This document shows positions 1 through 912 of a stretch of 912 nucleotides of DNA, one piece after another. The notes under the pieces are model-generated. The model saw nothing but the letters and a program-made list of their open reading frames with translations. It had not been told where the DNA came from and searched no databases. Position numbers and translations under genes: made by a program. Each line of letters starts with the position of its first letter. Within the stretch, counting starts at the first letter, position 1. This DNA is from a phage, in the sequence record S81553.1. The stretch is one strand, 5' to 3'.

Positions 1-30
1 GGGGGTAGGCCCCATAAGGGGCCTGCCTTC
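1..30 (+). promoter_or_regulatory. 5'-terminal stem-loop of an ssRNA phage genome (replication signal; its complement forms the 3' end of the minus strand)
   Basis: Seen in sequence: window starts GGGGG; positions 1-13 (GGGGGUAGGCCCC) pair with 18-30 (GGGGCCUGCCUUC) around an AUAA loop (14-17), giving 13 contiguous pairs including G-U wobbles at 3-28, 2-29 and 6-25. Established: the same architecture, G-run plus terminal hairpin, is found at the 5' end of Qbeta and MS2 genomes. Confidence 0.75.
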
Positions 31-41
31 AACGCACTACA

Positions 42-47
42 GAGGAG
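42..47 (+). promoter_or_regulatory. Shine-Dalgarno ribosome-binding site for the maturation gene
   Basis: GAGGAG at 42-47, 5 nt upstream of ATG at 53-55. Confidence 0.8.
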
Positions 48-52
48 AATCT

Positions 53-912
53 ATGCCAACCCTTCCGAGAGGACTTCGCTTCGGATCGAATGGCGAAATC
101 GTAAATGATTTCAACGCGCTCTGGTTTCCAGAGCGCGAAGCATTCGATCTCGAGCTCGGCTCCTACACACTCACTGGTTACGTAAGTAATCAGCCTGGCT
201 ATACGACGCGCATGCGTAATCCTCGCATGCATTGCGTTCGTACACCGCACAGAAGTACTGTACCTGTTAACCATTTTGGTTATAGGCCAGTTACGACTGT
301 TGAGTATGTTCCAAACGGAACTTTCATCCGCCTAGATGGGGATGTAAAGTTTTCCGGTGGATCGGTTAGTGGGTCGCTTAAGCTAAACAACTTCGTTGTT
401 AACTTAGCGTCACAGGGCGGCTTCGATTACCAGTCGGTAATCGGACCAAGGTTCTCGTCGCAATTCTCCGCGTTTAGTACCAAGTATGGTGCTTTGCTCG
501 GGGAAGGGAGAGAAACACTTAGTTATCTTCTCCTGCTGTTTCGCAGAATGCGTGAAGGGATCCGTGCCGTAAGGCGCGGTGATCTCAAGCGTCTCAGGAA
601 TCTGATACGTACATTCGAACCACGGTCCATTTCTGGCCGACGGCAACGAACGACGTTCTCAGAGACCTATCGCGATCGACTCGTCAACGACGGGTGGAAA
701 GACAGTAGTGCGAGTGACCTGTGGTTAGAGTTCCGATACGGACTGATGCCGTTGTTTTACGACATCAAGTCTGTAATGGAGGACTTCATGCGTATCCATA
801 AGAAGATCGCGAAATTACAGCGATTTTCAGCAGGACACGGTAAGCTTGTGACGGTTAAGGGTAGGTTCTTCCCTGACCCGCACTTCGCTATTGAGGTCAC
901 CGCGGTGTTACA
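53..912 (+). CDS. A2: Maturation protein A2 (pilus-binding/maturation protein, lysis effector in Qbeta-like phages); N-terminal 286 codons, truncated at the 3' window edge
   Basis: Seen in sequence: ATG at 53 with SD; frame 2 is open with no stop through codon 286 (ends 910; 911-912 are a partial codon). Translation MPTLPRGLRFGSNGEIVNDFNALWFPEREAFDLELGSYTLTGYVSNQPGYTTRMRNPRMHCVRTPHRSTVPVNHFGYRPVTTVEYVPNGTFIRLDGDVKFSGGSVSGSLKLNNFVVNLASQGGFDYQSVIGPRFSSQFSAFSTKYGALLGEGRETLSYLLLLFRRMREGIRAVRRGDLKRLRNLIRTFEPRSISGRRQRTTFSETYRDRLVNDGWKDSSASDLWLEFRYGLMPLFYDIKSVMEDFMRIHKKIAKLQRFSAGHGKLVTVKGRFFPDPHFAIEVTAVL. Established/recalled: Qbeta A2 begins MPKLPRGLRFGADNEILNDFQELWFPD and contains RTPHR, RPVTTV, FSAFNAKYG..GEG, LLLRRLREGYRAVKRGDL, LWLEFRYGLMPLFYDI and RFSVGHG in the same order. 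The MS2 A protein carries a related WLELQFGWLPLMSDI motif. Comparison is from memory, not a database search. Confidence 0.9.
   Translation, partial: MPTLPRGLRFGSNGEIVNDFNALWFPEREAFDLELGSYTLTGYVSNQPGYTTRMRNPRMHCVRTPHRSTVPVNHFGYRPVTTVEYVPNGTFIRLDGDVKFSGGSVSGSLKLNNFVVNLASQGGFDYQSVIGPRFSSQFSAFSTKYGALLGEGRETLSYLLLLFRRMREGIRAVRRGDLKRLRNLIRTFEPRSISGRRQRTTFSETYRDRLVNDGWKDSSASDLWLEFRYGLMPLFYDIKSVMEDFMRIHKKIAKLQRFSAGHGKLVTVKGRFFPDPHFAIEVTAVL

Follow-up and report, generated by a model that had tools for sequence, protein, structure and literature searches.

The stretch of DNA considered here, which we refer to as the window, is 912 nt in length and is identical to nucleotides 1-912 of AF059243.1 (100.0% identity over 912/912 nt), a record entitled 'Bacteriophage NL95, complete genome' that represents an RNA coliphage of Qubevirus faecium, a group IV allolevivirus. 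The NL95 genome, of 4,248 nt, has been in GenBank since 1998, where it was deposited alongside MX1 (AF059242) and M11 (AF052431), and it is one of those deposited for the comparative work on Qβ RNA structure by Beekwilder et al. NL95 belongs to the same genus as Qβ (Qubevirus) and is a close relative of SP and FI, with the next-nearest sequences being the FI strains at 77-86% identity (FI HB-P24 86%) and SP at 76%. The open reading frame that begins at nt 53 matches the Pfam family PF03863 Phage_mat-A (E = 1.8e-29), and the GenBank annotation of NL95 lists the A-protein CDS first (53-1381), then coat/A1 and then the replicase. Both nucleotide identity and gene order, with A2 first after a short leader, thus assign the window to the NL95 genome. 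The initial annotation had taken the start of the window to be an ssRNA phage's genome end, and this is borne out, as nt 1 of the window, with which the G-run GGGGG begins, is also nt 1 of AF059243.1, that is, the deposited 5' terminus. The features of the window are collected in Table 1.

Table 1. Features of the window, with positions counted from its first nucleotide.
Feature	Position	Strand	Basis
5'-terminal hairpin, complete: 13-bp stem, 4-nt loop, no unpaired 5' nucleotide	1..30	+	folding, genome rank, AF059243.1 match
5' arm GGGGGUAGGCCCC, opening with a G-run complementary to the 3' CCCCC of the minus strand	1..13	+	pair list; invariant in NL95 and four FI genomes bar one terminal G
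Loop AUAA	14..17	+	sequence not conserved among relatives
3' arm GGGGCCUGCCUUC; wobble partners U25, U28, U29	18..30	+	pair list; 0/13 positions vary in five NL95/FI genomes
Minus-strand 3' end GAAGGCAGGCCCCUUAUGGGGCCUACCCCC(A), complement of the hairpin; 7-bp core hairpin and two weaker G-C pairs	1..30	-	reverse-complement folding
Remaining 5' untranslated leader, outside the hairpin; Shine-Dalgarno-like GAGGAG at 42-47	31..52	+	sequence; 1/22 positions varies in NL95/FI genomes
Maturation/lysis protein (A2) gene, 5' part, runs off the window	53..912	+	translation; GenBank CDS; Pfam

The first 30 nucleotides read GGGGGUAGGCCCC-AUAA-GGGGCCUGCCUUC, and an explicit pair list gives 13 contiguous pairs, from 1-30 through to 13-18. 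This is the arrangement that had been proposed from inspection, in which positions 1-13 pair continuously with 18-30 around an AUAA loop, although three of the 13 pairs are wobble pairs (G·U at 2-29, 3-28 and 6-25, against ten Watson-Crick pairs), a point that the initial annotation omits. When nt 1-60 is folded as RNA the stem is present in both the minimum-free-energy (MFE) and the centroid structure, at -28.9 kcal/mol (z = -4.02), with 0/200 dinucleotide shuffles as stable, and it is retained as the MFE structure at 120, 300 and 912 nt with pair probabilities of 0.97-1.00. The expectation that the terminal stem would be the structure of minimum free energy therefore stands up to the full length of the window, although this structure, like every other given here, is a thermodynamic prediction. 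The 30-nt hairpin folded alone also has the stem as its MFE, with pair probabilities of 0.84-1.00, and at the plus-strand 5' end there are zero unpaired nucleotides, P(unpaired) being 0.01 for nt 1-2. Co-folding of the genomic 5' and 3' ends likewise keeps the 5' hairpin as the MFE, on which ground a 5'-3' panhandle that displaces it was rejected.

Within the NL95 genome the segment 1-30 is the most stable of all, ranking 1 of 4,219 30-nt windows at -25.5 kcal/mol against a genome mean of -5.1 (sd 3.3), and the hairpin is 70% GC compared with 51% genome-wide. A contiguous stem of at least 13 bp anywhere in 912 nt arises in 84 of 5,000 dinucleotide shuffles, one of at least 8 bp beginning at nt 1 arises in 24 of 5,000, and the chance of a 13-bp stem at a fixed position, based on composition, is ~3e-5. 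The location at the terminus and the stable, GC-rich stem-loop are both as found for the 5'-terminal hairpins of the ssRNA phages (Leviviricetes). None of the curated Rfam families matches the NL95 5' hairpin: a cmscan of the 912-nt window at E up to 10 gave nothing at 1-30 and three chance-level matches elsewhere. The segments that come next in stability in the NL95 genome are 2854-2883 (-21.6 kcal/mol) and a 3'-terminal hairpin at ~4214-4243 (-20.0 kcal/mol, with UGCUU in the loop), the latter corresponding to the conserved U1 hairpin of PMC3561173.

All four FI genomes carry the same stem as NL95, capped by loops of GUAA or AUAAA. Over NL95 and these four genomes, which are 76-87% identical across the window, 0/25 stem columns vary, a level of constancy that can be set against the 38% of CDS columns that vary (binomial P = 7e-6 for an invariant stem) and the 23% of second codon positions that do so (binomial P = 1.5e-3 for an invariant stem). 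The 5' ends of some deposited genomes, including the 5' arms of the FI records, may be primer-derived; since the loop differs among the NL95 and FI records, at least the 3' arm represents real data and not a shared primer. RNAalifold applied to group IV recovers the stem, with changes on both sides of a pair in 0/18 predicted pairs and a lone one-sided change in the stem, U28 to C in SP X07489, which converts the 3-28 G·U pair to G-C. Because there are no two-sided changes in group IV, close relatives cannot separate selection for structure from selection for primary sequence, and the case for structure depends on phages further removed, the hairpins of which are not alignable column by column.

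The more distant comparison shows that the structure is conserved while the sequence differs. GC-rich 5'-terminal hairpins of other sequence are found in FI strains, Qβ, M11, MX1, MS2, PP7, AP205 and PRR1, the exceptions being the SP records (in the upper stem) and the GA record, and in Qβ, TW18, BZ1, M11, MX1, MS2, PP7, AP205 and PRR1 the hairpin comprises 10-13 bp and lies 0-2 nt from the 5' end. Across the Qubevirus genomes with full sequence, which are those covered by the comparison of genome ranks, the terminal segment takes rank 1 in its own genome in three FI strains, TW18 and BZ1 and rank 4-13 of ~4,190 in M11, MX1 and Qβ. The terminal GGG of Qβ Anc, when 60 nt are folded, shows only partial pairing. 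When the pairs of 13 phage 5' hairpins are ranked from the loop, ranks 1-3 are always C-G with the C on the 5' side (5'-CCC...GGG-3') and at ranks 5-10 GC, AU, CG and UA interchange, with G·U pairs concentrated near the terminus, a tabulation that was built from each sequence's own MFE and is thus partly circular as covariation evidence, rather than an independent column-wise test. The loop-proximal CCC/GGG motif reads alike on the complementary strand. An alignment by MAFFT of the terminal hairpins of ten phages was out of structural register, as stem lengths and bulges differ, and was left unused for the counting of pairs.

With respect to the individual phages, it had been suggested that the NL95 hairpin be compared with those of Qβ, SP and MS2, and equivalent 5'-terminal hairpins are indeed present in Qβ and MS2, whereas the upper four pairs are broken in the SP records. 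In X07489.1 and GQ153935.1, nt 10-13 of SP read GGGG in place of the CCCC of NL95 and all FI strains, the four loop-proximal pairs are lost as a result, and the terminal segment is only 165th in the SP genome. Substitution of CCCC into SP takes the predicted hairpin from -16.1 to -30.1 kcal/mol. The GGGG probably stems from an error of sequencing or compression in the 1988 record, carried over into later ones, although a real difference is also possible. In the GA record NC_001426.1 no hairpin starts from nt 1 within nt 1-47, where the MFE helix spans nt 6-47 at -14.9 kcal/mol, and this exception may reflect the quality of the 5' end of the record.

The 5' hairpin of Qβ and the alloleviviruses is the first helix in the secondary-structure model of Qβ RNA (Beekwilder et al. 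1996, as cited in PMC3561173). The NL95 element resembles that of Qβ in its placement at the extreme 5' end and upstream of A2, in its initial G-run, in its loop-proximal CCCC/GGGG stem and in having a G·U pair second from the terminus. It differs in that its 13 bp are uninterrupted and amount to -25.5 kcal/mol, whereas the Qβ-like phages have 10-11 bp with a bulged A and -17.6 to -21.8 kcal/mol, and in having three G·U pairs compared with one. The loops also differ, with AUAA in NL95, GUAA or AUAAA in FI, UUUA or CUUA in the Qβ-like phages and UUUC in MS2. The MS2 hairpin, with which the cloverleaf of the MS2 leader begins (Groeneveld et al. 1995; see PMC4615214), is nearly identical to that of NL95 in architecture, with 12 bp, a 4-nt loop, three G·U pairs, a complement that is 6.0 kcal/mol weaker and a free minus-strand 3' end, its 3' arm reading GGGGUCCUGCUC where NL95 has GGGGCCUGCCUUC. 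However, MS2 belongs to another genus (Emesvirus), and its leader runs to 129 nt and contains a cloverleaf and a kinetic trap, whereas in NL95 only 22 nt separate the hairpin from the AUG. A further likeness is with the small RNAs replicated by Qβ replicase, whose termini, 5' GG(G) and 3' CCC(A), are described as the same as those of NL95 (Biebricher and Luce 1993; Ugarov and Chetverin 2008; cited in PMC4652763, PMC6913131) and for which a need for a stem at the 5' terminus of template or product has been reported (PMC4652763, PMC6913131). These are, by the same accounts, non-coding replicons of 30-220 nt selected in vitro, whereas the NL95 hairpin is the end of a 4,248-nt coding genome.

A search of IMG/VR and JGI metagenome contigs with the A2 protein yielded no confirmed further Qubevirus relatives. 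The exact motif GGCCCC-N4-GGGGCCTGCC occurs in 42 IMG/VR contigs, nearly all of them from unrelated DNA phages and many with the motif in an internal position. The sole relevant contig, IMGVR_UViG_3300034668_001172, is levivirus-like, has a length of 3,051 nt and gives a weak Phage_mat-A match of 23.7 bits, just under the 25-bit cut-off. At nt 2-23 it reads CAGGCCCC-GAAA-GGGGCCUGCC, that is, the core of the NL95 hairpin with a GNRA loop, and it is apparently short of a few 5' nucleotides.

The two strands of this element do not fold alike. The reverse complement of nt 1-30, which corresponds to the minus-strand 3' end, has a folding energy of -18.3 kcal/mol compared with -25.5 kcal/mol for the plus strand. 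Each of the three G·U pairs is replaced by a C·A mismatch on the minus strand, and as a consequence the 3'-terminal hairpin is weaker by 7.2 kcal/mol and the 3' CCC is unpaired. In the 30-nt fold the last three C residues of the minus strand have P(unpaired) of 0.90-0.97, and the ACCCCC tail as a whole stays mostly free when 912 nt are folded. The difference between plus and minus strands (ddG -7.2 kcal/mol) falls in the most extreme 0.26% of NL95 genome windows. The 5' end is paired in both NL95 strands, and in larger folds a long-range helix partly sequesters the plus-strand 3' end. Beyond NL95, and beyond MS2 with its similar imbalance, a free minus-strand 3' end is also seen in the FI strains and TW18 and partly in M11, while the asymmetry is absent in PP7 and PRR1, where the complements are approximately equal in stability.

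The number of terminal G residues varies between records, with five in NL95, SP, TW18, HL4-9, VK, BZ1 and BR12 and four in the FI strains and Qβ Anc. With four, the C at position 30 has no partner. The difference in count could be real terminal heterogeneity or ambiguity in end determination, and the true NL95 terminus is uncertain by about one G (4 or 5).

Downstream of the hairpin, the segment 31-130, made up of the remaining leader and ~80 nt at the start of A2, is unusually conserved in group IV, and in the leader the variation (Table 1) compares with 38% deeper in the CDS. In the 912-nt MFE structure the SD/AUG region (~33-55) is paired with downstream sequence. Both this pairing and the conservation of 31-130 are consistent with the control over long range of A-protein synthesis that has been described for Qβ. 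Within the A2 coding region, window positions 115-137 (+) form a 10-bp hairpin, CGCGCUCUGG-UUU-CCAGAGCGCG, of -19.3 kcal/mol, which is present in 7/7 group IV genomes and has undergone two-sided changes (C115-G137 to G-C in BR1, BR8 and SP; C117-G135 to A-U in HB-P22) as well as one-sided changes from U-A to U·G. On the minus strand, no 30-nt window is more stable than the complement of this hairpin.

Why should a genome of this kind begin with such a hairpin? The hairpin lies at the deposited terminus, no other local structure in the genome is as stable, and its structure is conserved across the family. Taken together with the literature, this indicates that nt 1-30 are very probably the true stem-loop with which the plus-strand genome of NL95 begins, a cis-acting replication element and the NL95 representative of the GC-rich 5' hairpins of the ssRNA phages. 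According to PMC3561173 (citing Beekwilder 1996, J Mol Biol 256:8), every ssRNA phage sequenced possesses a stable GC-rich 5' hairpin, for which an important part in replication has been suggested. Qβ replicase is described as requiring a 3' CCC, a 5'-terminal stem and an interaction between the 5' and 3' ends (PMC4652763). The termini 5'-GG and CCA-3' are common to both strands; the penultimate C is the base at which templating starts, and when initiation complexes form the template CCA-3' occupies the catalytic site with its two C residues paired with two GTP analogues (PMC4200798). A need for the NL95 hairpin in replication would be by analogy with this Qβ replicase literature (PMC3561173, PMC4652763), with which the view of the terminal hairpin as a replication element agrees. 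The initial annotation had extended that view to the minus-strand complement, and in this respect it has to be modified, as the complement is the weaker structure and leaves its 3' CCC free.

The functional steps that can be envisaged are modelled on the work with Qβ and MS2. The 5' GGGGG would be the copy of a minus-strand 3' CCCCC(A) at which a replicase of the Qβ type would begin plus-strand synthesis de novo with GTP. Once ~30 nt of the nascent plus strand had emerged it would snap into the -25.5 kcal/mol hairpin, the formation of which would pull the product off the template so that free single strands, and not a dead-end duplex, were generated. The folded hairpin would also leave no single-stranded 5' end for 5'-end-dependent nucleases. 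On the minus strand, where the C·A mismatches that replace three of the 13 pairs leave only the 7-bp core and two weak pairs, the weakness of the hairpin would keep the 3' CCC single-stranded and able to enter the replicase active site. Through this asymmetric folding a single 30-nt element would thus provide both a closed, protected plus-strand 5' end and an open, initiation-competent minus-strand 3' end.

It is possible, if doubtful, that the main role of the hairpin lies instead in RNA stability, whereby the lack of any unpaired 5' nucleotide would block 5'-end-dependent decay (RppH, RNase E entry) of infecting and progeny plus strands and replication would need only the terminal G/C residues. 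The complete pairing of the plus-strand 5' end, with the very low P(unpaired) of nt 1-2, and the rank of the hairpin as the most stable local structure in the genome are what such a role would predict, and Emory, Bouvet and Belasco reportedly found in 1992 that E. coli mRNAs are stabilised by 5'-terminal stem-loops. A role in stability nevertheless leaves the conserved placement of the G·U pairs and the open minus-strand 3' end unexplained, and the small non-coding templates of Qβ replicase, though selected in vitro for replication only, reportedly need 5' stems (PMC4652763, PMC6913131, citing Biebricher and Luce 1993). Protection against decay is compatible with the replication role and is probably a secondary benefit of it. 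Unlikely is an involvement of the hairpin in controlling how the maturation (A2) gene is translated, whether, for instance, through the timing of leader folding or through masking of the ribosome-binding site. The A2 start codon is only 22 nt away and the whole leader is nearly invariant, and in MS2 the pairing partner of the Shine-Dalgarno directly follows the 5' hairpin on its 3' side, the kinetics of leader folding controlling the synthesis of the maturation protein (PMC4615214). Yet in no fold does the NL95 stem include or pair with either the SD (42-47) or the AUG (53), the SD region finds its partners downstream in the 912-nt fold, the MS2 5' hairpin is itself described as an element separate from the regulatory arms (PMC4615214), and the same type of hairpin occurs in phages with leaders spanning 52 to 252 nt. 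Masking of the A2 ribosome-binding site by the hairpin was rejected, given that no fold pairs 1-30 with 42-55.

It is highly improbable that the coat or maturation protein recognises the hairpin as a specific binding or packaging signal. Many stem-loops in ssRNA phage genomes do serve as contacts for coat protein, as is generally known and as is described in PMC4751978. Here, however, the loop differs even among close relatives (AUAA, GUAA, AUAAA), the stem is without the bulged purine of operator hairpins, and no evidence was found that ties the 5' hairpin to capsid proteins. There is finally the matter of artefact or chance. Self-primed second-strand cDNA synthesis can create terminal inverted repeats, and a snap-back of this kind during cloning of the 5' end could in principle have produced the hairpin. 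The probability of this is negligible, for a snap-back gives perfect complementarity, whereas three of the pairs are G·U and would be G·T mismatches in cDNA, and the same hairpin is present in independently sequenced FI strains, with versions of other sequence in Qβ, MS2, PP7, AP205 and PRR1. The G·U pairs and the agreement of independent isolates thus rule out a cDNA snap-back, while the low composition-based probability at a fixed position, given above, argues against chance.

The NL95 5' hairpin is therefore real, correctly interpreted and already known, being a textbook feature of ssRNA coliphage genomes. As such it has little discovery value, and its practical use is as a positive control, in which a genome terminus and replication hairpin were recognised from raw sequence alone. 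The strand-asymmetry figures (-25.5 versus -18.3 kcal/mol, with the 3' CCC free) provide a quantitative illustration of how a single element serves both strands, and the asymmetry could aid in judging whether metagenomic levivirus contigs are complete at the 5' end. A broader idea, that terminus-proximal G·U placement over a strand-symmetric CCC/GGG core is a conserved strand-discrimination device across Leviviricetes, is unlikely, and the principle of strand discrimination has probably been stated already in the older Qβ replicase literature. If the idea were true, the placement of G·U pairs could be used as a rule with which to orient and complete metagenomic levivirus contigs. The device itself would then shut the 5' end of the plus strand but keep the 3' CCC of the minus strand open, and it could explain how minus strands act as efficient templates without helper factors.
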